Origin: Flectonema sp. DT1601 | Lineage: Eukaryota | Assembly (NCBI GenBank): GCA_964019425.1 | Contig: OZ025784.1 | Span: forward strand, 1,054,001 to 1,118,000 | Direction: 5' to 3' | Length of the DNA stretch: 64,000 bases | Part shown: piece after piece, positions 1 to 64,000 of the stretch | Numbering within the stretch: position 1 is the first letter of the stretch | Layout: each line of letters begins with the position of its first letter | The notes under the pieces: model-generated | The model's input: only the letters and a program-made list of their open reading frames with translations | Database searches by the model: none | What the model was told of the DNA's origin: nothing | Translations under genes and position numbers: made by a program

Positions 1-2895
1 AGACGATAAATCAATTGAAATTAGAGACTTACAACCACAAAGAAATCCACTACCAACGCCGGTCAGCTCATTCAAATTTGATAGTTCGATTGAAACCAGA
101 GATCTGCAACTCTGCAAAAAATGGGATCCTATGAACTTGACTCCTGTCATGCTATTGAAGTTATAAACAAACTCCAGAGAGGTACAATCACAAAGAAATC
201 CATTTCCAATTTCAGTTACGTTCTTAAAAGATTTTAAGTCAATCGTTTTTAGGGATTCGCAATTTCTTAAAAAACATTCTCCGATGGTTTTTAATTTCGT
301 AAAAGACGACAAATCGATGGCATTCAACGAACTGCAAGAAAAGAATGCAAAATCTGAAATTGACGTCACGTTGGATAAAGTGGACATCTGCTTTATGGAT
401 TGTAAGGATGAACACTCACTGAGGAATCCTTCGCCCAATTTAGATACTTTTTCAAAAGATATTTTTATCGTTGTCAGAGATGAACACCACGCCATGAATT
501 CCGATCCTACCTCAGAAAGATTTTTCAAACTCGAAAAATCAATTTCCAATAATGACTCGCAGCTTCTAAATGCGAAATCACCTATCTTTGTAACACTTTG
601 TAACCCCTCAATATGTAAAAGGGTTTTTAAAGACTTGCAATCAGCTAAAAATGAAACACCCAATTCAGTGACATTTCCAAGACCTGATAAGTCGATCGTC
701 TCTAGTTTGGAACATCCAGCAATAAACAAGTCAGGAATATTTTTTATACAGGACAAAGATGAAGTGTCAAAACTAATCAAAGAATCACAATTAAATAAAA
801 AACCTTCTCCGACACTTTCAACATTCTTCAAACAAGAAATATTACTGATGGTTTCCAGAGAGTTGCACTCGCTTAAAAAATCTTCTTTGATCTCAACAAT
901 GTTGGTGAAGACTGATAGGTCAACGTGCAACAACGATCGGCAATTATGAAGAAAAGCAATTCCAATAAACTTAATGCTTAACAAGACTGAAACATCTATT
1001 GATGTTAAAAGTTCACAAAAATTTAAAAATTGATCACCAATGTAAGATACATTTTTCAAAGTTGAAATATTTTCAATCACCGACAGTGATTTACACTTGT
1101 ATAAAAACCCATGGTTTATTTTTTCAACTTTTCCAAAAGAATTGAAATTCACAGATTCCAGTTTCGAACAGCTGTTCAGGAAGTCTTCTTCAACGAGAAC
1201 GAGTTTTTCAAAACTCGTCAGATCAATCGACGACAACGACCCGCAATCACAAAGAAATCGATTCCCAATTTCTTCAACTTTCTTTAAACAACACATTCCC
1301 TTAATAGATTTCAAAGATGAACACCTAAATAAAAACGCTCCCTCGATAACTTTCACATTTTTAAAAGCACTCACATCAATCAACTCAAGAGACGTACACT
1401 GAAATAAAAAAGCAGAAGCAATACAGGTTAACTTTCCAAACGCAGAAAGGTCTATCGCAGTCAAAGAAGTACATGAGTGTGCAAAATGAGTTCCAATTTT
1501 TTCAATATTTTGTAAACTGAAAATGTTTGAAATCGAAGTCAGAGATGTGCATTCAGATAAGAATCCATCTCCAACTCCAATGACTCCTTCAAAACCAGAA
1601 ACAGATGAAACAGAACTGCATCCGTTCATAAACACGCGTCCTATTTCTTTCAACTTGGTTAACTTTGAAACATCAATCGAAGTAAGCGACGAACACGAAA
1701 GTAAAAACTGCGATTTTATCTTCACCACATTACTTAAACCAGAAAGATTTTCTAACACTCGCAACGATGAACAACAAGAAGCGAAAGAGTCCTCTATTTC
1801 GATTACCTTTTTAAAAGCTGATAAGTCGATGCTTTCCAAAGACTCACATTTATGTAAGAAATCACGCCCAATGTGTTTAACTTCTGTCAACGCAGACATG
1901 TTTAAAATAGTAGTCAACGAACCACACAGAGCTAAAAACCCTTCTCCTATATTTGTAAGATTAGCGAACATCGACAAGTCAATAATATTAATAGAAGAGT
2001 TCTGAAGGAACTCTGGTTGGATTGTTGTAATATTTTTCATTCCAACAGTGCAGGTTATTGATTCCAAAGAACTACACGATTTCAAAAACGAAGACCCTAC
2101 GGACTCCAGATTTAGAAAACAAGAAAGGTCAACACAAGACAAACTTACGCAATATTCACAAAAAAAGCAACCAACAGACTTCACATTCTGAAGTGAATTT
2201 AAATTCTTAATATTTTTTAATGAGGAACAATCACTCAGAAAGTTTTTTCCAACACTTTTTATTTTATCAAAAACTAACAAGTCAACGGAAACAAGACTAA
2301 CACAGTGATCTAAGAAATTTGTACCAATACTGGTAACGTTTTGCAGACCGTTGAAATTTATATCAGTTAGATTAACGCAGTGGCTTGAGAATGAATCATG
2401 TATTTGAGTCACAGAACACAACCCAGAAAGAGTCAATGTTGTTATATCTGAGGATGCTAAAAAACCTTCTGAAGTCCAGTTTGCCACTAGTGGCGGATTC
2501 TCAAATGACATTTTTATTTTTATTTTTGGAATCCAAGATCCAGGAAATACAATCTCATTACCAACAACAAAGGTCGTCGTGTTAATCCGAAGTTGTTTTT
2601 GTGTGTGTTCGTGAAGCTCGCTGATCATTCTTCTTCTGACTACACTAGAAAACCATTCCTTACCAAACAACCTAATTATTGAAGCAACCAACTGACAATC
2701 AGGACCCACACCGTGTTTTGTTAATAGCGTGTCAGTCGGAAGTATATTTCCTTCAAAACTCAATTCCAAAAATTCAGAATTAGCTCCCCATTCAGCAGCT
2801 GCTTGTTGTGATATGTCACCTACTGAAGTTCGTGATGTCGACACCACTACCACATCTGAGTAACCAACATCAGGACATGAGACAATTACTTGCAT
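1..2895 (-). CDS. Ubiquitin-like N-terminal domain plus long BspA-type leucine-rich-repeat protein (3' end runs off the window)
   Basis: Manual translation from ATG at 2895: MQVIVSCPDVGYSDVVVVSTSRTSVGDISQQAAAEWG..., then repeats such as 'LQNVTSIGTNFLDHC'. Absent from the ORF track, consistent with no stop inside the window; the + strand ORFs here are antisense shadows. Confidence 0.85.
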   Translation of the reverse strand, partial: MQVIVSCPDVGYSDVVVVSTSRTSVGDISQQAAAEWGANSEFLELSFEGNILPTDTLLTKHGVGPDCQLVASIIRLFGKEWFSSVVRRRMISELHEHTQKQLRINTTTFVVGNEIVFPGSWIPKIKIKMSFENPPLVANWTSEGFLASSDITTLTLSGLCSVTQIHDSFSSHCVNLTDINFNGLQNVTSIGTNFLDHCVSLVSVDLLVFDKIKSVGKNFLSDCSSLKNIKNLNSLQNVKSVGCFFCEYCVSLSCVDLSCFLNLESVGSSFLKSCSSLESITCTVGMKNITTIQPEFLQNSSINIIDLSMFANLTNIGEGFLALCGSLTTILNMSALTEVKHIGRDFLHKCESLESIDLSAFKKVIEIEDSFASCCSSLRVLENLSGLSNVVKIKSQFLLSCSSLTSIDVSKLTKLKEIGRVFMNGCSSVSSVSGFEGVIGVGDGFLSECTSLTSISNIFSLQNIEKIGTHFAHSCTSLTAIDLSAFGKLTCIASAFLFQCTSLELIDVSAFKNVKVIEGAFLFRCSSLKSIKGMCCLKKVEEIGNRFLCDCGSLSSIDLTSFEKLVLVEEDFLNSCSKLESVNFNSFGKVEKINHGFLYKCKSLSVIENISTLKNVSYIGDQFLNFCELLTSIDVSVLLSIKFIGIAFLHNCRSLLHVDLSVFTNIVEIKEDFLSECNSLETISNISCLKNVESVGEGFLFNCDSLISFDTSSLSCIKNIPDLFIAGCSKLETIDLSGLGNVTELGVSFLADCKSLKTLLHIEGLQSVTKIGDFAFRSCESLLEIDFSSLKNLSEVGSEFMAWCSSLTTIKISFEKVSKLGEGFLSECSSLQSIKQMSTLSNVTSISDFAFFSCSSLNAIDLSSFTKLKTIGECFLRNCESLKTIDLKSFKNVTEIGNGFLCDCTSLEFVYNFNSMTGVKFIGSHFLQSCRSLVSIELSNLNELTGVGSGFLCGCKSLISIDLSS

Positions 2896-3594
2896 TTGGG
2901 TGTCTTGAATTCCCTGTCTGAACCATAAAATAATAAAGAGCAACTTTACACGAGACGCATCAAGATTTTCAGCTGTCCCTCAGAGATGGCATGGCTGAAT
3001 GGTAAATAACCAAACATCAGGACATCATAATCTACTCTGAAGTGAATTAAATATTTTTAAAATTTTCATCACCAAACTCACGAATGACGCTTCCTTGCAA
3101 AGACACACTGATACAAAAAAGAGTTAGTTTTCAAAGTACTCATTGAAAGAATCGATAAGCATGTATCAATGAATGCAAAAAAATAACGAAATCGAAACAT
3201 GCCATGAAAGAATAGGCTTATAATATAACATAAGAATTGAGAGGGGAAAACACGGTTAGACATTAGAAACACATTCACAGTTGGCTCAAACGGAAGCCTG
3301 TTGTTTTTTAATAATATAGAAATAAAGATATAGAAATTATAATGCGGCTATAGCGCATTCATTCTCCTTTGGAAGAAACTCTCGGTCTCCTCAAGGAAAG
3401 GATTCATTTGTGTGAACCTCAAGAAAGATGAGGTGATTACATATTCATTGTCACCTTTGTATATTTAGTGTGTTCTCGAATGCGCACACTGGCTACACAA
3501 AAGGGTTTACGATTTGACTGGCTGGCTGGACGGCAAACACGTCAAAATCAAATTCAAATAAGAGGGAGAGAGAATGAGAAACAGAACGAACTAC

Positions 3595-16704: not shown

Positions 16705-17278
16705 CTTTATCAACTATCTTTTTAAAAGAGATGAGAATTACTTTTTGCGGGGGATAACTTTTGATACCTTTATTAAATATAAAGCAACTTGAATTTGGAT
16801 AAAAATCATGTGTGCCGTCGAATATGGGGATTCGAGGGCCCTGTACTACAGCTTTTTAATTTGCAGGGGGTGAAGAATAACTGTCTCCCGACAACATATT
16901 TGAAATCTGTTTTTTTAAAAATAGAGTTTTTAAAAATATCAAAAGATTTCATTTTTATTTTACTTCGAATGGTAAAGAAGCCTCTCATGGGATCTCTTTG
17001 TTGTTGTTTTTTTTTTTTTCCTTCTTCTTCAGACAATGACAGACAAAACAAATGCCTTCCTACTCATGTGGCACATGTTTTTTTATTTTTCCTTTCCTTC
17101 GTATTTTTTTTTTTTTTTTTTTTTTTTTTGGTGCTATAATCACAGCAGACTGGGGTGGGTTCGCTTGCGAACGTGCAATCCTTAATTGCGCTATATTGAA
17201 GATAACGTCTGTGATTCCTGTTTACTCACAGTTAGTGAATGAGGACCAATGTCATGACACATCATAATTGTGTATTTG

Positions 17279-19524: not shown

Positions 19525-19680
19525 CCTGACTTCAATCTGATTCTCTCTTTTCCATCGTCGTGTTGACTAATCTGAAAAAAAAAATAAAAATAAAAATGAA
19601 ATTTAACGAAATCTAATAAATGCATATCTCCGTTGGCCATTAAAACAAAAGTAAAAAAAAAAAATTATATAATTGAGCCT

Positions 19681-19800
19681 TTGATCTTGTTCGGTTATTC
19701 CTGAGGGGGTGAAGTATAATAAGAGTTAAAGTATTCACTCGCACAGGTCTTGGCGCTGATCGTCAGAAATCAGAAAATCCTTTACGAACACACACAAAAT
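19681..19800. repeat. Family-A dispersed repeat, copy 1
   Basis: TTCCTG-GGGGTGAAGTA...CACTCGCACAGGTCTTGGCGCTG...CAGAAATCAGAAAA-CC-TTACGAACAC shared with copies at 30343, 45185 and 61605. Confidence 0.85.
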
Positions 19801-20375
19801 GTTTTCTTTTTATCAATTTCTGATAATTAGATTTTATTGTCTCCATTAGGGTCATCCTGACTTCAATCTGATTCTCTCTTTTCCATCATCGTATTGACTA
19901 ATCTGAAAAAATAAAAAAAAAAAAATGAAATTGTCAGAGTAAGAAACGTTACGAAATTTAATAAATGCATATCTCTGGGGTTGCCATTAAAACAAAAGTA
20001 AAAAAAAAATTAAAATGTAACAAAAAAGGTTCTTCAAAAAAAAGCAACCAGAAAAAAAAATAAAAACTCTCTCGTTTTTTTTTTTTTTTTTTTTTATGTT
20101 TAGCAGAGAGCGTCGATCAATAAAACATAAACAAGCAGCAGGTTTTCGGAAGCTAGTTGTCAACGGCGATCAAAAGAAAAACAACAGAACTGAGAGACTG
20201 ACAAACCACTGAATGGTTGAAAGGCAAATACCAAAACGAAATCTCAAAACAACCTAATACACTCTTGACACTTAAACAAATTGGGAAGAAATTATTAGTA
20301 GTAATTCTGAAAGAACCAGTCAAACAAAAAAAGAAAAAAAAAGAAAAAAAAAATCAACTTACCATCGACCAATTA

Positions 20376-36275: not shown

Positions 36276-36965
36276 TTAAACAGAGCTCAATTTATCCATT
36301 GAATCAAAGGGTTCCTTAATTATCAATTCCTGGATCTGTTCTTTTTCATCTTTACAATTGATGTCTTTAAGTTCGTGTGTTTCTCTGAACTTCAGAGTTG
36401 GTTCTTCTATTTTATATGATTGGTATCCGTACCAACCTTGGAACGTTGCAAGAAATGACACTATAAGCATACTCCCCGCGAATTTTGTTGTTTTTTCGTG
36501 GTCATCTAATTGATCGGAAAACCATGTTCTCATAGTAACGTAAAACGGCATTAGACACAAACCAACAAACAGTAAACCTTTCCAAAATATTAGCGGAGCA
36601 ATTCGAACTGATTTGGCACGTGCTTTTGAATAATTTAATTTCACTTCTGTTTTTGGAAGGTCGGTTACTTCTCTATGATTTAGGTAAACCTGAATAGCAG
36701 CGAGTGGAATGACTGTTGCGATCACAACCACGTTGGCAAACAGTAAAGTAAATCCCAGCTGTAAGAATATTAATGGAGATAAAGCGGTGAGCAGCCCGAG
36801 AACCATCCCGATTATTATATTTCGACGATGGGTCTGAAACACCATCTTCTTTCTCTTTTCAGATGATATTATTCTCCCACATCCGAATCCATGCGGGTAG
36901 TACGCAGTAGTCCCATCATCCAAATCAACGAATGCTGACTCAGTCGCTACATTCAGGAAAGACAT
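36276..36965 (-). CDS. 4-TM membrane protein, paralog 2
   Basis: ATG at 36965 (MSFLNVATESAFVD) aligns to the paralogs. Confidence 0.85.
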   Translation of the reverse strand: MSFLNVATESAFVDLDDGTTAYYPHGFGCGRIISSEKRKKMVFQTHRRNIIIGMVLGLLTALSPLIFLQLGFTLLFANVVVIATVIPLAAIQVYLNHREVTDLPKTEVKLNYSKARAKSVRIAPLIFWKGLLFVGLCLMPFYVTMRTWFSDQLDDHEKTTKFAGSMLIVSFLATFQGWYGYQSYKIEEPTLKFRETHELKDINCKDEKEQIQELIIKEPFDSMDKLSSV

Positions 36966-37119
36966 AATTTGTCTTTTTTTTTTTTTTTTTTTTCTGTTGG
37001 AAAAAAATTTAAAAAACAAAATACAATTCACTAGCAGGGGATTTGTCTCGTTCGGATGTCAAACAAACAAAAATAAATAAGTTAGTTGGTATTTAATATA
37101 AATCGGATTTATCAAAAAA

Positions 37120-37268
37120 ATCAATCAAATCAAACAAATCGTGAGGGCAAAGAAGTTATGGTTGCTTTTCGGGCTAAAATTAAAAAGATCTTTCCCCGGA
37201 CCATTCCTCTTACCCAGCCTTCTTCAGCGAAGAAAGCAACGGGGACACTGCGTTGTCAGGCCTGTTCC
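37120..37268 (-). repeat. Family-B repeat, decayed copy of the permuted hammerhead element
   Basis: Colinear with 63045-63175; retains CTGAAGA, GTC, GAAA and stem I, but stem III and the first stem II pair are broken. Confidence 0.8.
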
Positions 37269-37817
37269 AGAAGTGTTAGTTTTTGAGAGTATTAAAAAAT
37301 TGCATTTCAGAAGGGAAGTCAGCGAAGTCAACACCCCTGGGGAAGCCCACGGGGTACGAGTTATTTGGTACGACAACCATGGGACTCTCACAGGGTTATT
37401 ACCAGAGTGAAAACATAAAATAAATTGTTCCGTTGGTATCAATACTTAATCTAAACGTATACTATGAGTCGCTGTAACAGAGGACTCAATCCATAAGTAT
37501 AGATTGTTGAATTACCTTCAACTAAAGTACTTCTACCTTGATTCTGTATATTTTATTGTTTTAGAAGGAGAGACCGTGTGACTCACCAGCTTCAGAAGAG
37601 GAATGAAGAAATGACCTTTCGCATTAAATACGGAAAGATATTCAAGAGTGTGTGAAAGGAGATTAATCGTTTGATTTAACAATCTGGTTAAGGTGTGTAC
37701 ATTAGTGTTCACACATGGATGAAAACATTTGAAAATATCTACTTTTTTTTGTACAGTTTGAATTCCCTTGCAATTGCTGTTATTTTTCAGGTGATCAATT
37801 ATTGCTCTCACAACTTC

Positions 37818-38507
37818 TTATGCTCTACTTGAGATTTCTGAATCCAACCTGTCCGATGGATCAGATTGTTCTTTAATAATTAATGCGTGTTTTTCATCTT
37901 CGCAATTGATGTCTTTAAGTTCGTGCGTTTCTCTGAACTTCAGAGTTGGTTCTTCTATTTTGTACAATTGGTATCCGTACCAACCCCAAAGTATGAAAAA
38001 AAGACATATCAAGAATAAGAGTATTGTGTTTATAACTGTTCTTTGATACGGTTTCAACAAATGTGAAAACCAAACTCTAATCGTTAGGGTCAACATCGTC
38101 AGACACACACCAAAAACAATATCAGCTTTCCAAAATATTAGTGGAAGGCACCGAACTGATTTCGCACGTGAGTTTGTGATATTCATTTTTATATCTGTTT
38201 TAGGAAGATCAGCTACTACTCTGTGATTAAAATATATCTGAAAACCCACTGCTGGAATACAAGCAACAGCTGTAATGCCGACCACGAATATCAGTTGGAG
38301 ACTCAGCAGTGCAACTACTATTCCAAAAACAGTTGCAGCTAACAATTCGGCGAGAATAATTCTACGGTGAACTTCGAACACTTCCATCTTTCTCCTTTCA
38401 CACGTAATTATTCTTCCTGAAACTACTCTTCCACAGGGATAGAATATTGTGCTTCCGTCTTCCTGATCGGTGAATGAAGCTTCTGCTTGTTTGTCTAAGA
38501 ATCTCAT
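37818..38507 (-). CDS. 4-TM membrane protein, paralog 3
   Basis: Aligns to the paralogs; C-terminal YKIEEPTLKFRETHELKDINC is identical to paralog 2. Confidence 0.85.
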   Translation of the reverse strand: MRFLDKQAEASFTDQEDGSTIFYPCGRVVSGRIITCERRKMEVFEVHRRIILAELLAATVFGIVVALLSLQLIFVVGITAVACIPAVGFQIYFNHRVVADLPKTDIKMNITNSRAKSVRCLPLIFWKADIVFGVCLTMLTLTIRVWFSHLLKPYQRTVINTILLFLICLFFILWGWYGYQLYKIEEPTLKFRETHELKDINCEDEKHALIIKEQSDPSDRLDSEISSRA

Positions 38508-38756
38508 TTTATATGTTCCGTGTATACCACACTGTTGGTCAGAAAGATTAATTTAGAAAAGCTTAACTGATAGTGATTAGAGTCAAGCAAGAACGATAGC
38601 AACAACTGCAATTATTGTTTTGTTTTGTTTTGTTTGTTTTTTCTCGATAACTAAATACCTGAGGAATGTTATAAATAAGTGAAACAGCAACTACGCAACT
38701 TTTCTTAATAAACTAACTCGATTTCCCGTTTTTTCGATATCATTAACCAGATGTAG

Positions 38757-38897
38757 TTTTGTAGTACCTCGGCTACATTTGTTGCTATTGGGCAATTTGC
38801 GCGCCTGCTGCCATCCTTAGATGTGGTAGCCGTTTCTCAGGCTCCCTCTCCGGAATCGAACCCTAATTCCCCGTTACCCGTTACAGCCACGGTAGTC
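38757..38897 (-). pseudogene. SSU (18S) rRNA fragment
   Basis: + strand AATTTGCGCGCCTGCTGCCATCCTTAGATGTGGTAGCCGTTTCTCAGGCTCCCTCTCCGGAATCGAACCC is the reverse complement of conserved 18S sequence. Confidence 0.92.
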
Positions 38898-39391
38898 ATA
38901 TCATCCCTGCAAAAGAAGACAATATAAATACTCACCAGATGTTACTTAAATCCAAATGTGGTACACTTTTAGAAACCTGAGACATAGATACAGGGAACAT
39001 TCTTAAAGTAAACACATACAGTTTTTTTTTTTTTTTTTTTTTTTTTTGGCCGATCTATGTCGATACTAGACTTGTTTAATATGCGAAAATATAATAAATA
39101 CCTTCCTCGGTCTTCTTATAAAGTATATGTTTTTCCGACAACAAAAAAAAGGAAGTCTAGTATGAAGCATTGCATAAATAAAGAGAGGAAGGAAAAAAAA
39201 AAAAAACAACTCCATACTGCACAAACCCATTGACGAGCACGAGTAGAATACGGTATGAGAAATGAAAACTGGTCCACTATACGATTGAAAGGCAAGAAGG
39301 TTAAGCGACATTTGGGGGGCAAGCCTGTGAAATATCACAAAAGCTTTAAAAAAAAAAAAAAAAAAAAAAGAACGCTGCTTTTGTTTGAAAC

Positions 39392-44787: not shown

Positions 44788-45184
44788 CTATTTGTTAGTA
44801 GTTACCAGGAGATGTGTAATAAAATATATTTTTTATGTTCGTAGAGCATGTCTGTAGTCGAATATGTTGTGTCGCCTGTTATGGAATTGAAGTAATCATC
44901 CTTTAGTAACTTTCCTTTGTTCAATATTACTAAGTCGTTGTGTGATAGTATATCGGAGTAGAGTACGAGGGAATAGTCATTCTTATACCACACAGCCGTA
45001 AGACACCCTCCAACAAGTGAATGTTCACGCATTCCCTTGACGGCTTTGAGGCGAGCAATTACGGTTGAACATGTCACAGTAGTTTAAAATAAAATGAAAA
45101 TGCGATGAACTTTATTAGTATACTTGTCCAACCGAGGGGGATGAGATGACGGGGAACTACTTTGAAAGAATAAGAAGAATGAAC

Positions 45185-45330
45185 TTTGATCTCGTTCGAT
45201 AATTCCTGCGAGGGGTGAAGTACAATGGGGGGTAAAGAATCACCTACACAGGACTTGGCGCTGCTATTGTCAGAAATCAGAAAACCCATTACGAACATAA
45301 AAACGATTTTTTGCTTCTTCACAGTCGCTG
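45185..45330. repeat. Family-A dispersed repeat, copy 3
   Basis: Colinear with the 19681 and 61605 copies. Confidence 0.85.
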
Positions 45331-45543
45331 AGAAGTTGGTTTGATTTGATTTCAGCGACGCAACCAAAAGGAAAAGAGAGAATAACAACATTGAGAATTC
45401 TGCGGATAAAAAGAAATTCTCTCTTATTTTTATTTCACTTTTTTTTTTTTTTTTTTTTTCACAATACCCGTAAGAAGACACAACTTCGTCGGCCTGGAGC
45501 TACCGTGAAGCTCGACTAAAGTCGTACCGAATAACTCAAAACT

Positions 45544-56453: not shown

Positions 56454-58763
56454 CTTTGTGTTGTTAACCACTCACTTGAATATAAAGAAGGTTTTTGTAT
56501 TTATTATTATTTTCTTGTTTTTTTTTTTTTTCAATTTACCAACTTTCTCTCACATAAAATTTGTACTGTTATGAGAATATAACGTTTTTACCTTTTTTTT
56601 TTTTGAATGAAATTTAATTATTATTTTTTTAATTGATTACATAACCCAAGTAGCTAAAAAGAATAAATGGTGTGCATGGTAAATTGATACTGCATTATTA
56701 AGCCTCAAAAGGAATAACAATCCCCTCGACTGTCAGCGGCAGCGTAGTAAATGACTGCAAATAAATAAATAATACCACTGGAGGCCACATGAACATAGTT
56801 GAGCGTCAGTTTTGTATGTTACTGTTAACAGTTTTTTATAAAACTTCGGGAAATAATTCCTCTTTTTTTGTGTTGCTTCACATAATTACAAAATCAATAT
56901 CAAATTACGGGAAACAAGACACTCCATTTGTTTGAATTGAGTTGCAATTTTTTTTTTTTTTTTTTTTTTTGATAATGGAAAAACAATCACATTATATTGG
57001 GTTACACATCATACACATCTTCAGTCGCAAAGTCAAATTATTTTCAGTCTCCTTTTGAGGATGTTATTTAAGAAGAGACGGGTCTCGCAAAATATCTCTT
57101 TCCTCTTCTCTTAGTTTGGTATAAAAAAACTAAGCATTCAATGTCTCGTACCGATGTTACAGCAACGAGACGTCTGATATGAGTGAAGACAACCTTCTAT
57201 TTCCAAGGGACAAACTAAATTACAAAGAAAACTCGACTTATGACGAGAATAGGGAAAGAAAAAAAAGATGACTACCATCAGCGTCACTGGTGACGGCGAG
57301 AAGACAAGCGGGTTTTTTTTTTTTATTAAAAAACTTTTATATAAACAGATGATAGCAGGCAAACTAATCAGACTCACGCCTACACTTTGCGACTAACTCA
57401 GGTGCTGATACTCAGGAAAGAACATGACGACCATCAACGCCACTAGTGACGGCGAGAAACGACGAGAAGGACCACATGAAACAGGGTGTTTATGTGTACA
57501 ATCGTCAATGTATCATTTTTTGGTTCGCAGTCACCGACGCAACAAAACATTTACGAACCGCTGAGAATCCTACGGGTAGGAGACTACAGGTAGAACTATC
57601 TCAACGTAAGGAAAAAAAAGAAAAAAGAAAAACAACTAATGCATAACATCAACTTTCTATTAAAACTCAAGCGACAGGCCAGACGCAATCACCCTGACTT
57701 CACACGTTGAAAGGAACGAAAATAGGCAAGGAGGTCGAAGACAAAACAAAAAAAGTACACCGAGTACCCTGCAGATAAAATTAGCGAAATCACTTTTTTT
57801 TTTTTTTCGTTAAAGATAACGTGAATGAATTTTTTTTTTTTTTTTTTTCCCCGCAAAAAAAAGAACAATAAAAAAAAAAAATATAAAAGACGACTTAGGA
57901 ACACCGATATACTTCCATCGTCTGTTCCAGAGGGTGGATCAAACAACCTTCTTCGCTCGAGGCTCTGAATAGATGCCCTTGCTCAAAAAACCAGAGCATA
58001 CAACAGCTGGTATTAAGAAAAACTAAAAATAAATAAATAATATTAAGTGACTTTAATGTGAATAAACACATCTACCTGCTTGTAGTCAAAGTTCCAACTA
58101 ATTATATATATACAAAAAAAAAAACAGGTACGCACGATAATAAAGAGAGCGAAAAAAAAAAAAAAAACATATTGCTTTTTTCCTTGATTGGTTATGCCTG
58201 ATTTAAACTGGAAAACTTCAAAAAAAAAAATATCACTAGATAAACAACGCCACCCATGAGTATCTTCCGAGTACCAGTTTTTTTTTACTGGCTTGATGTC
58301 ACTAGTCTCGGTTTTTCTTCAAAAATGTAAGTAGATGAATAAAAAGGAAAGAGGGTATAGAAATCATCTACTATAAGAAAATCCTTCTCTATATAAACAT
58401 TTTAATTTTTAATTCGCATCTCTTCTCTGAATTCAATTTATTTTTTTTATGTTTTTCTTATTTAAGTATCATAGTCTACAAGGAGAACACGTGAAACTAA
58501 AAAAAATATCTATACTACTCTGGAAATAACGACTGTAATACGATTACGCACTCAGCAATTGATGAGATAACGATGACAATGGACACACGAAAATGCGCGT
58601 AAACACTTTGAGAAAAAGAGGAGGAAGAGGAGGGATAGATGTATGTTCGATTTTGTAAAAATTACAACAGTGTTGAATCATAAAAACATAAAGATAATTT
58701 AACATCAGTTTTAGATACAGTGACTAAGGGTGATGCGCAACTTAGCATAATAAAGTAACTATT

Positions 58764-58818
58764 AGGTTTCGAGAGTAATCCATATACCTCTTACCTCTAT
58801 TCTCTCTCATCAGTATGG
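58764..58818 (-). ncRNA. Hammerhead ribozyme candidate, non-circularly permuted (family C)
   Basis: CCAUA-CUGAUGA-GAGAG-12nt-AGGU-A-UAUGG-4nt-CUCUC-GAA-ACCU: full core with stems I (5 bp), II (5 bp) and III (4 bp). Confidence 0.8.
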
Positions 58819-59218
58819 TGTAGAAGTAGAAGTAAGTCAGTCAAATGTTGAGACTAGTTTGCGGTACTGAAATGTAGTTACTTTAAGTTTCATGTTCATA
58901 ATAAAAAACATATTATTTACTGTTACTAGTTCGTAGCTCACTACAGGAGAGGATTATTGCCATAACAGTGAGGGGACAAACTAATCCCTTTTTTTTTTTT
59001 TTTTCTACTATTTTTCATCGAAAACGGCGATAAGTCCGATTTTAAGTAGAAAAAAAAAAAAAAAAAAACAGCAATAACAAAAAAAAAGAAATAAAATTAA
59101 AATAAATACCATTGTTAGATTTGCGGAGGAAGCAATTTTTTTTTCTCTCTTTTTTTGTTTTTCATAGTTTTTTTAAAAATGAAAATGAGAACCTTTTTTG
59201 TCAGTCATCTAATAAGTA

Positions 59219-59290
59219 AGCCGCTTTTCAGGCTCCCTCGAACCATAATTCCCCGTTACCCGTTACAGTCGTGGTAGTACACTACATTAC
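59219..59290 (-). pseudogene. Degenerate SSU (18S) rRNA fragment
   Basis: AGCCGCTTTTCAGGCTCCCTC-GAACCATAATTCCCCGTTACCCGTTACAG matches part of 38828-38897 with a ~9-nt deletion. Confidence 0.8.
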
Positions 59291-61203: not shown

Positions 61204-61604
61204 TATAAGAAATCAACTGTTGGTATCGATAAAAAATCCCATATATGTGCTGTCGAATATGGGGATTCGGGGGCCACGTACAGGGGGGAAATTAATACTA
61301 AAATTATGAAACTTGAAACAAGTAAGAAAAGTAATTTCGGGGGGTGAGAAAAAGATGAAGCAAGCAAAATAAAATAAAATACGCATGTTGTCAACGTCGT
61401 ACCGTACTGATCGCACATAATATTTTAAAACCGAGTAGGGGGGGAACAACTGTAACACAAATCGATGATTAATTTCGAGATCGACTCCGTTGAAGTGTCT
61501 CTCTAGTTGATCGTATATTTTTCCCATGTTATGTATCCTGTGTTAGTGACACGAATACACTTCCCAGCAGCCGACCAAGTATAATTGGAGTTAACTTCTG
61601 TTTC

Positions 61605-61730
61605 GGGAATTCCTGTGAAGGGGTGAAGTACAATGGGGTTAACGAATCACTTGCATAGGGTTCGGTACTAATGGTCAAAAATCAGAAAACCCTCTTTACG
61701 AACACAACACACACACACAGGTTTTTGCTT
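61605..61730. repeat. Family-A dispersed repeat, copy 4
   Basis: Colinear with the 19681 and 45185 copies. Confidence 0.85.
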
Positions 61731-62749
61731 TTTTTGTAAGTAGGACTCGACTTCAAGAGCAAAGGAAAAGGGAGAAAGAAAAAAAACACTTGAGGGGCAA
61801 AAAAAAAAAAAAAACGGAATTGTGAATTGTGATGTTAGGTTAATTATATTTTTCTTCCATCCAAAAGAAAGTGTTTGGATGCAAAAAAAAATTAAACATC
61901 ACTGTTGTCAATTTACAAACAATTTTTTTTAAAAAAAAAAAAAAACTCGCAAGTAGACACTTGGAAAATAAAAAAAAAAAACCAAAAATAAACAAAACAA
62001 ACCCAAAAACGATAAACGTTTGAAACCAACAGCGTCAAGCCAGATCTCGGGCGACAAGCTGGAATGGTGCGGAGACAAAAGAATACGAGCTTATAGATAA
62101 CGGGTCTAGTACATTACGTATGTAGACCAAATCTTGTCTAGGATTATTATGTAGCTAAGCTGTCGTTGGAATGGAAAGATCAGATACATAATCTGGGAAA
62201 CAACAGCCAGACAATTAACAACACTAAAGCAACCTCTTCTTCTAAGCTATTCCAACGTAAAAAAAAAGACGTCAAAAAATTAACTGTCTTTAATTCAGAC
62301 GAATACAGAAAACTAAAATAGATAACTAACTTCAGCAACACACATGACCCACTTATGTTACCAAAACTTGTTAAGTAAAGCAACCTGATGGTTGTTTTTT
62401 TCTTTCTTTTTTTTTTTTTTTTTTTTTTTTGCTCTTTTTTTTTTTTTTTTTAATTAGAAACCACATTACACAACCGACACGAGCTACAGAGTGAATAGCT
62501 TCTCCAATATATCAAGCACACATTCGATCGCGTGCTGGGGTAATTTTGATCCGATACGAAAAGATTTATCTGGGAAGAATACAGGGCTGAGGTAGGGGAA
62601 AGAACGAGCAAAAAAAAAAAAAAAAAAAAAAAAATGGGGGAAAAGGAAAAACGGGGGGGAGGTTAATTCTTTGATTTTTGCAAAATAAATTACAACCGTA
62701 TTGTACCACATTAACATAAACGATAAATTTAGCAATCAACTGTGAACTA

Positions 62750-62935
62750 CTGTGACTTAACTTACTCTTTTAAAGTAACTATTTAGGTTTTCGAGAGAAT
62801 CAATCTACCTCTTTACCTCTATTCTCTCATCATCAGTAATAGTGTGAGTCTGAATAACCTTCAGTTAAGGCAAGTCTGGAGTGTAATTACTTTTCAAAAA
62901 ATATGATCCTAAGAAAAATCTTATTATTGTCATCT
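62750..62935 (-). repeat. Family-C repeat, decayed copy of the permuted hammerhead element
   Basis: Colinear with about 58720-58925; single-base insertions next to the core and loss of stem I. Confidence 0.8.
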
Positions 62936-63066
62936 TAATTACAGTTGAATACAGTCACAGCTCGTGGTAACAAGTTAGTATTAATAATTATCGTAGTAAC
63001 AAGTTAGTATTAATAATTATCAGTCAATCAAAAAAAAGGCAAAAGTTCGTAGGACAACAAACAAGT

Positions 63067-63140
63067 TGGTTTCGGGCTAAGATGAAAAACAATCTTTCTT
63101 CGGACCATTCCCCTTATCCAGCCCTCTTCAGCGAAGAAAG
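63067..63140 (-). ncRNA. Hammerhead ribozyme candidate, non-circularly permuted (family B)
   Basis: CUUUCUUCG-CUGAAGA-GGGCU-12nt-UGGU-C-CGAAGAAAG-15nt-AGCCC-GAA-ACCA: full core with stems I (9 bp), II (5-7 bp) and III (4 bp). Confidence 0.85.
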
Positions 63141-63656
63141 CAAGGGGGACACTGCGGTGTCAGGCCTGTCCTACAACAACAAGTTAGTTAGTTAGTTATC
63201 AAGTCCATCAGACCACCGAGTATCGGTTAGGTAGACACTCAAAGAGTACCGGGTGGCTCTTCTGAACAAGAAACCTTTAACTACTTCAGAGCTAATTATA
63301 AATAACGGAACATTATTCAATGCTCAGTGAAAAGAAGATGAAGATTGATATCATTTTCTTAAGAAAAATGAATACCGTAAATAAACAAACACCATTAAAA
63401 AAAAACTAATCAAAACAAAACAAAAAACAAGAATTTTTTTTTTTTTTTTTTTTCGATGATAAAAAAAGACAGTTAATCTCAGCACAAAATACACAGTTTC
63501 AGATGTCAAAGGAACCGTGGCACATCCATTGCACATTCATCAAAAGGAAAGAAAATTGATAATCCACAAATGCCCTCGTCATAGCAGAGACAGGCTCTAT
63601 TTATGAATAAAATTTATAAATAAAATAATTTTGAAACAGCCGTGAAGCAGCTTCAA

Positions 63657-64000
63657 CTAGTCATATCCACTCAAGTATTTCCTGTAAGCTTTGTAATTAG
63701 TAACCCATCCAACCATGAAACTATTTACCTGATATGAGGTAAGTGTAATTGACCCGATGTGGTCATAATCAGCAGGCGCGTCCTCACTAACGACAAATGG
63801 CTCAGACATAGCAGTTAGTGAAAAGTCATACTTTGCAACCATTACGAAAGAACGACGGGCGAACTTATCATAAGCCACCCAGGCAACTACAATATAGTCA
63901 ACCAGTACTAGTACCTTCGGCTCAGTTGTTGAAGCTATGTTGGACCAGATAACAAACTGAATAGAATTAGGAACGACGTTACTAGAAAAGTCGATTTTAA
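63657..64000 (-). CDS. 3' end of a hypothetical protein entering from beyond the window
   Basis: Frame is open from the window edge (KIDFSSNVVPNSIQFVIW...) to TAG at 63657. Confidence 0.65.
   Translation of the reverse strand, partial: KIDFSSNVVPNSIQFVIWSNIASTTEPKVLVLVDYIVVAWVAYDKFARRSFVMVAKYDFSLTAMSEPFVVSEDAPADYDHIGSITLTSYQVNSFMVGWVTNYKAYRKYLSGYD

Follow-up and report, generated by a model that had tools for sequence, protein, structure and literature searches.

A type-CSG hammerhead ribozyme fold in a dispersed repeat of Flectonema sp. DT1601, with a probable tie to Naiad/Chlamys retroelements

The DNA analyzed here is a 64 kb stretch of the Flectonema sp. DT1601 genome (the window), and the features described below were read on its minus strand. 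All 21 reading frames of at least 270 aa are on this strand. One-strand gene arrays are known in diplonemids, according to the parts of that literature consulted. A dihydroorotase at 45.5-46.6 kb has Diplonema papillatum as its best organism-named match (65% identity), and its matches in bacteria and algae are at about 55% identity. That single protein, together with the arrangement of the genes, suggests a diplonemid host. The window also contains three paralogous membrane-protein genes of 243-260 aa (33159-33890, 36276-37058, and 37818-38552), one of which gave nothing above cut-off in Pfam, and an open-ended reading frame of 993 aa that resembles leucine-rich-repeat proteins (1-2979, minus strand).

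Ribosomal RNA fragments, both SSU and LSU, are dispersed on the minus strand (38758-39007, 59219-59278, and 25964-26324), and the LSU piece has exons of a Ras-family gene, located at about 24.5-27.1 kb, on either side. Thousands of dispersed rRNA pieces are described for D. papillatum in the sections of the source covered. Further dispersed repeats were found at 19679-19838, 45184-45346, and 61602-61711, as well as at 16801-16846 with 61232-61281; these families are about 50-160 nt long and have one orientation each. Near the end of the window, an upstream reading frame (63998-63657) precedes the ribozyme fold described here, and the predicted cut is 554 nt past its stop. This frame has no Pfam match, and no longer homologue was found among 40 candidates, which is a weak test.

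The fold belongs to a repeat that we call family B, and its parts are as follows.

63140-63132 with 63102-63094, minus strand: stem I, nine Watson-Crick pairs
63131-63125, minus strand: core C3-A9 (CUGAAGA), from sequence reading and descriptor scan
63124-63120 with 63078-63074, minus strand: stem II, five Watson-Crick pairs followed by two G-U pairs (strands 63124-63118 and 63080-63074)
63107-63103, minus strand: stem III strand 16.x and C17, with the GUC triplet; predicted cut between 63103 and 63102
63093-63081, minus strand: linker from stem I to stem II, 13-15 nt, varying from copy to copy and exceeding that of every other CSG example seen
63073-63071, minus strand: G12-A13-A14 (GAA), part of 63073-63067 with stem III strand 15.x
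63070-63067 with 63107-63104, minus strand: stem III, four pairs, with A15.1-U16.1 and C15.2-G16.2

All core elements listed in the initial annotation, which was made from the sequence without database searches, were found at their places in 63140-63067, and its stem lengths (9, 5-7, and 4 bp for stems I, II, and III) hold. The three stems abut the hammerhead core without insertions, and the G10.1-C11.1 pair and NUH site are present. The annotation also proposed a non-circular strand order (CUGANGA, cut site, GAAA; C-S-G). This order is supported by a descriptor scan in which both strands of the window were searched for each of the six orders; it gave two matches, 63140-63067 and 58817-58765, both C-S-G. 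When G-U pairs were allowed, one alternative circular reading passed, in type III order with a stem I of 3 bp and its site at 63212, but it is far weaker. Hammerheads of types I, II, and III have the circular order C-G-S and a three-way junction without a pseudoknot, and 63140-63067 does not have this arrangement. Standard hammerhead models miss the fold, as had been expected: Rfam gave no hammerhead match at E-values up to 5 and no other ribozyme in the window, and its strong matches were rRNA fragments only.

Shuffled sequences were used as the background for the scan (3629 windows, with dinucleotide content kept within 500-base blocks). They yielded 35 matches of any order, two of which were in C-S-G order with minimal stems. 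None reached the 18 Watson-Crick pairs of 63140-63067, and five shuffles had a match with 14 or more. We consider it nearly certain that the hammerhead fold is real and selected. The proposed cut between 63103 and 63102 is supported as the site predicted from the fold, and the copy at 63 kb would probably cleave in vitro.

The initial annotation pointed to a report of rearranged hammerheads from about 2023, and this precedent is real: Eckert, Friedrich, Weinberg, and Weinberg (2023) named six strand orders (PMC10085705). It is closer than the annotation supposed, as the exact order found here is their type CSG, which cleaves in vitro (PMC10085705). In the sections of that paper covered, type CSG comprises two similar sequences, from soil-metagenome DNA only and with host unknown. 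CSG-1 and CSG-2 cut at the predicted site at the slow rates of 0.004 and 0.026 per min, and Eckert et al. judged the evidence for CSG to be weaker than that for SGC. Their structure line for CSG has two neighboring hairpins, with two separate pairings between the loops (PMC10085705). The blocks of 63140-63067 follow the order C, S, G. The topology of the family-B ribozyme is already published, as type CSG, and the fold at 63140-63067 is a member of a class that is in print but barely populated.

The first reading of the fold stands, but it missed a fourth helix (P4), an outer stem (P0), and the repeat that carries them. The added helices are listed below.

63147-63141 with 63116-63110, minus strand: helix P4, 7 bp, directly against stem I, in the published CSG position
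63176-63166 with 63057-63047, minus strand: closing stem P0, 11 bp counting G-U pairs, enclosing the whole domain
63161-63148, minus strand: 5-bp hairpin between P0 and P4

As in the published class, stem I and stem II are linked on their outer sides by a helix, the 7-bp P4. Singly, P4 and P0 of family B are not significant, being matched by 307 and 148 of 2000 loose shuffles, respectively; for a second family in the window (family A, below) the numbers are 65 and 32 of 2000. Both helices draw their support from where they lie and from appearing again in other CSG examples. The RNA can form the neighboring hairpins P4 and stem III, whose loops pair together twice to give stems I and II. This double loop pairing puts CUGAAGA, GAAA, and GUC into the usual core, and P0 can clamp the pair of hairpins.

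A competing structure is also available. Strand 2.x of stem I (63140-63132) can pair back onto the core as an inhibitory hairpin (-17.4 kcal/mol, versus -6.6 kcal/mol for the open P4 hairpin), and the nested minimum-energy fold hides the core. Summed helix energies are -52 to -54 kcal/mol for the knotted fold before pseudoknot penalties, versus -42.7 kcal/mol for the best nested fold. Because the inhibitory hairpin is strong, the margin after these penalties may be small. On these energies the knotted fold is plausible but not safely dominant, and the competing hairpin could slow cleavage.

The family-B repeat is present in four pieces within the 64 kb, and the following features mark these pieces and the junctions of the copy at 63 kb.

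63002..63174, minus strand: family-B copy with the ribozyme, 5'-truncated, 173 nt, delimited by an X2 contig match and window paralogues
37081..37270, minus strand: decayed family-B copy; G10.1 changed, a 5-nt insertion breaks stem III, and two stem I changes stay G-U
32445..32560, minus strand: family-B 5' part, stopping within stem I; its upstream sequence resembles the flank of the X2 contig
34255..34336, minus strand: family-B 3' fragment, a weak match (E 1.6e-4 in one comparison, 0.31 in another)
63178..63188, minus strand: upstream 11-bp direct repeat, resembling a target-site duplication, at the end of an (AACT)4 run ((AACT)4.2)
62998..63008, minus strand: downstream 11-bp direct repeat, at the common 3' end of family B
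62962..63021, minus strand: tail-like 29-bp tandem duplication of the element 3' end, 2.1 copies, 96% matches

Further copies were identified in contigs from four public runs (X1-X4). The runs had small query shares, and their contigs, even those from RNA libraries, carry no evidence on transcription, strand, or ends; they give almost no cover of the host genes at 33159-33890 and 36276-37058, so they may not contain Flectonema. Six of the 14 contig pieces on 62400-64000 overlap the element and continue into other flanks. Four of these six end at 63002-63005, and the 5' ends vary. A 389-nt contig from X2 matches all 173 nt of 63002-63174 with four differences and has different flanks. The differences listed for X2 and X4 are all outside helices, and those of X2, together with its loose end, spare the core. 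The end of an X2 contig at 63098 was discounted as a cleavage product, being off the predicted cut. Since the X2 contig and the 32.5 kb piece share upstream sequence, the element must be longer than the copy at 63 kb, which is 5'-truncated. A circular unit of 173 nt was rejected on the same grounds, as both run on upstream in common sequence.

Each of the three 5' junctions in the window is preceded, within about 7-12 nt, by the motif AACTAAC (background, 0.27% of positions), although the motif was picked after the junctions had been inspected and the sites are few. It was also found upstream of one X3 copy. Copies of family B share a 3' end that lies 101 nt beyond the predicted cut, and this end has no poly(A) tail in the window or the contigs. 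Family-B copies in the window are single and dispersed, with no tandem of the unit, and no pseudo-LTR pair or inverted copy was found there. Pfam detected no reverse transcriptase or endonuclease remnant in 140 frames, as expected for truncated copies. The direct repeat, the 3'-end duplication, the fixed 3' end with variable 5' ends, and AACTAAC are marks of target-primed retroposition, and a retroposed repeat is very likely the carrier of the family-B ribozyme. Another repeat (63184-63265), 99% identical in run X1, adjoins the 63 kb copy on its upstream side. The X1 copy of this repeat runs into sequence found at 32324-32368, and the end of the repeat resembles the family-B 3' end.

Type-CSG folds with the same layout and different sequences were found in family B, in family A, and in a metagenome contig (L046). 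Family A is unrelated to family B in sequence and has a close variant in run X2. Its pieces in the window are listed below.

58650..58885, minus strand: intact family-A CSG hammerhead; stem I 5, stem II 5, stem III 4, P4 10, and P0 11 bp
58785, minus strand: predicted family-A cut after this position, at a GUA site; a 3' tail of about 125 nt follows
62687..62892, minus strand: decayed family-A copy, 110 nt downstream of the family-B copy
31600-31657, minus strand: weak family-A fragment at 31.6 kb

All seven pieces of families A and B, including the weak 31.6 kb fragment, are on the minus strand. The third example, L046:922-974, is in a 1074-nt contig and has an 11-bp P4, a 5-bp stem II, an 8-bp stem III, and a short interrupted stem I. 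Its wider span (897-986) includes a closing stem of 8 bp, which does not reach significance by itself, and is followed by a small stem-loop. The region upstream of L046 had no Pfam match in six frames read through stops and gave two uninformative protein matches. The two halves of the core are 51 nt apart in family B, 36 nt in family A, and 40 nt in L046. Among the few family-B copies available (the 37 kb copy and the X2 and X4 contigs) there is no compensatory pair; equivalent helix positions carry different pairs in family A and L046.

L046 came from a search with core-word patterns and a pairing filter, in which the first bases of stems II and III were fixed, so that the counts are not a census. 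It was the only one of 117 metagenome loci to pass the pairing filter, with 37 of 64 parts scanned. None of 43 viral loci (0/13 and 0/30) and none of 19 prokaryote genome loci passed. Loci L064, L104, L051, and L171 were dropped, having met loose stem rules and failed the combined filter. Viral scans for the Naiad protein motif and for the nematode-type CSG gave no matches for either.

Naiad and Chlamys elements are Penelope-like retroelements described by Craig, Yushenova, Rodriguez, and Arkhipova (2021) as having truncated 5' ends, tails of 30-40 bp, and an insertion bias toward microsatellites (PMC8557442). Naiads were reported, in the parts of the paper covered, to be without a canonical hammerhead and to have half-cores 35-50 nt apart (PMC8557442). 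The hosts given there are animals, green algae, spike mosses, and a slime mould, and Euglen-, Discoba, and Diplonema are absent from its text. We searched the supplement of PMC8557442 for four 8-letter core words, which occurred at 29 places, 23 of them in DNA records. On reading by eye, five of these 23 look like complete CSG hammerheads that include P4, as does a sixth place that turned up in the following search. By headers and table order, the records are Naiad_Ppac, Naiad_Parc, Naiad-1_Nbra, Naiad-2_Nbra, Naiad-3_Nbra, and Naiad_Hcon. In the nematode records, as read by eye, P4 is 9-13 bp, stem I 5-6 bp, stem II 4-5 bp, and stem III 6-11 bp; the CSG fold is downstream of the ORF in six of eight nematode Naiad records, and the distance from cut to consensus end ranges from about 25 to about 560 nt. 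Two other records of the supplement (near parts 17 and 19) have a core within a long hairpin and may be SGC-like. The only named carriers in which CSG folds were seen in this analysis appear, from reading by eye, to be Naiads.

Family B has traits of Naiad-type elements. It is 5'-truncated with a common 3' end, and it has a microsatellite insertion bias, although at few sites and with a repeat that differs from the published ones. We lean toward reading 63140-63067 as a type-CSG fold in a dispersed repeat that is the 5'-truncated tail of a Naiad/Chlamys-like Penelope-like retroelement or a non-coding derivative of one, and a mobilizer of Naiad/Chlamys type is itself somewhat favored over other sources. 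The broader proposal, that CSG hammerheads are an overlooked ribozyme of Naiad/Chlamys elements and that diplonemids carry at least two such families, is put forward tentatively, at a little under even chances.

Under the Naiad/Chlamys reading, two hairpins of the RNA would kiss and build the catalytic core, and the RNA would cut itself after C17, between 63103 and 63102. Hammerhead chemistry consists of attack by the 2'-OH of C17 on the next phosphate, which leaves a 2',3'-cyclic phosphate and a 5'-OH. The ribozyme would trim read-through or tandem transcripts, and transcript trimming is the role proposed for Penelope hammerheads in the sections of PMC8557442 covered. New copies would be made from uncut RNA by target-primed reverse transcription, starting about 100 nt downstream of the cut, primed at genomic AACTAAC-type sites and mostly stopping early. 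The fold-back of stem I may form before the 3' strands exist, which would delay cleavage and leave some RNA uncut.

The same ribozyme could instead be in a SINE-like passenger of a non-LTR element with a restriction-like endonuclease (SLACS/CRE, R2-like, or HERO-like) that recognizes AACTAAC. We regard this as unlikely, although it is the best of the alternatives. A narrow target motif and a short duplication suit site-specific non-LTR elements. The motif may resemble a spliced-leader or branch-point sequence; no support for this resemblance was found in the D. papillatum sources searched. Insertion of CRE/SLACS is site-specific, in spliced-leader genes, according to the portions of the sources covered. 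The D. papillatum supplements, as far as covered, contain many reverse transcriptases of the SLACS and LINE/R2 groups, both of which form large families (PMC10161547). Penelope or GIY-YIG annotation is absent from the supplements searched, a scope that probably excludes the repeat section of Additional file 1. This absence, like the missing mention of a euglenozoan host in PMC8557442, counts against the Naiad link. However, family B ends without poly(A), the ribozymes of the trypanosomatid elements ingi and L1Tc are HDV-like and at the 5' end (PMC4035085, in part), and no named carrier of a CSG fold other than a Naiad was seen.

Less likely still is that the copy is a folded-off relic, in which the stem I strand pairs with the core and cleavage needs a protein or partner RNA. 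The burial of the core in the nested minimum-energy fold is consistent with this, as are the 4-bp stem III, the linker of 13-15 nt (2-6 nt in other CSG examples), the slowness of the published CSG ribozymes (PMC10085705, in part), and the insertion of the anole Penelope element in vitro with no need for cleavage (PMC11167929, in part). Nevertheless, the 63 kb copy keeps an intact core, the X2 differences and loose end avoid the core, and the knotted fold is ahead by about 10 kcal/mol before penalties.

Marginally less probable again is that the copy has been domesticated within a 3' UTR, where its cutting would act on the mRNA upstream or on the polycistronic precursor, comparable to SIDER2 of Leishmania. 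The distance of 554 nt from stop to cut is below the median length of D. papillatum 3' UTRs, about 800 nt, and the family A and B pieces (7/7) share their strand with the long frames (21/21). In the sources covered, SIDER2-linked cleavage is on record and engineered 3' UTR hammerheads knock genes down in Trypanosoma cruzi. The strand bias is not specific to the ribozyme, however, as rRNA fragments are on the same strand and other repeats are mutually co-oriented; in addition, five of the seven family A and B pieces are broken or partial, and the frame upstream has neither homologue nor Pfam match. That short motifs of AT-rich intergenic DNA fell into this arrangement by chance is already largely refuted: descriptor matches do occur in shuffles, but none is as strong, and two matches of the same order, both with the published fourth helix, are in one window.

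With the Naiad/Chlamys reading retained as the favored one, what is new here is the host lineage, the mobile carrier with its target motif, and a probable tie to Naiad/Chlamys elements. A tie between type CSG and these elements was not found in print, and no later publications dealing with type CSG, or with permuted hammerheads of Naiads, were found in a search that covered the subscription literature thinly. Our literature search likewise found no report of a natural hammerhead from diplonemids or other Euglenozoa. The window adds two unrelated CSG families in a eukaryote genome, the metagenome scan a third example, and the supplement of PMC8557442 appears to hold six more, which its authors, in the parts covered, did not report as complete ribozymes. 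Together, these examples point to Penelope-like retroelements as the biological home of the class. If CSG is the ribozyme of Naiad/Chlamys elements, this retroelement group and natural hammerheads would both extend to Euglenozoa, and the orphan CSG-1 and CSG-2 from soil would be explained as retroelement tails. Euglenozoa transcribe polycistronically, and a self-cutting RNA on the sense strand could affect neighboring mRNAs; the stem I fold-back of family B would then be a switch between uncut RNA for copying and cut RNA within such transcripts. Whether Naiads truly lack a hammerhead, and what purpose the knotted wiring has, are now questions that can be addressed with short RNAs.

Several known systems share features with family B; for these comparisons the cited sources were covered in part. 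The L1Tc, ingi, and SIDER elements of trypanosomatids also have self-cleaving RNA in short retroposons within polycistronic units, but their ribozymes are of the HDV-like class and at the element 5' end, whereas family B has a hammerhead (PMC4035085, PMC5509151). Hammerheads of canonical Penelope pLTRs and of retrozymes are near the 3' end and occur in scattered, truncated single copies, as in family B; they differ in being type I circular permutations, often minimal and dimeric, whereas family B is CSG (PMC4209133, PMC11167929, bioRxiv 10.64898/2026.07.22.740005). Non-LTR retrozymes are tandem arrays of type I units, unlike the single, dispersed copies of family B. Family B would also resemble Penelope in starting reverse transcription shortly past the cut (PMC11167929). 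For the anole Penelope element, Frangione et al. placed the ribozyme cut at 26 and the start of reverse transcription 111-118 nt into the ORF; most copying used uncut RNA as template, and cleavage was dispensable for insertion in vitro (PMC11167929). By subtraction, this start is 85-92 nt past the cut, versus 101 nt in family B, a match that is loose because distances in the nematode elements vary widely.

Naiads and family B have in common 5' truncation, microsatellite bias, and split half-cores (PMC8557442). The 29-bp tandem at the family-B 3' end may correspond to the short Naiad tail; Naiad-type elements also occur as partial tandem or inverted pseudo-LTR arrangements. The family-B target is an AACT run, whereas Naiad targets are (TA)n, (CA)n, or (C)n; Naiad/Chlamys elements have an ORF with an N-terminal GIY-YIG, a CxC motif, and a telomerase-like reverse transcriptase, and no such ORF was found in the window (PMC8557442).

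The nearest relatives in structure are CSG-1 and CSG-2, which share with family B the C-S-G order, the full core, the GUC site, stems I-III, and a helix that pairs the 5' flank with the linker following stem II (PMC10085705). Stem I is 9 bp in family B and 6 bp in the published CSG, stem III is 4 versus 5 bp, and the linker that separates stem I from stem II is 13-15 versus 5 nt; P0 and the extra hairpin of family B are outside the span of the published CSG alignment (PMC10085705). Family B is in an identifiable eukaryote lineage and a multi-copy repeat, with cleavage predicted, whereas cleavage was shown for CSG-1 and CSG-2 (PMC10085705). SGC hammerheads (HRIMA-1 and variants) are also of the non-circular class and have the same two hairpins in the other order (PMC10085705). 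They number 583, come from metatranscriptome contigs, and are believed to be circular RNAs of a virus-like kind, and their linear order differs from that of family B; we infer that CSG and SGC would have the same wiring once on a circle (PMC10085705).
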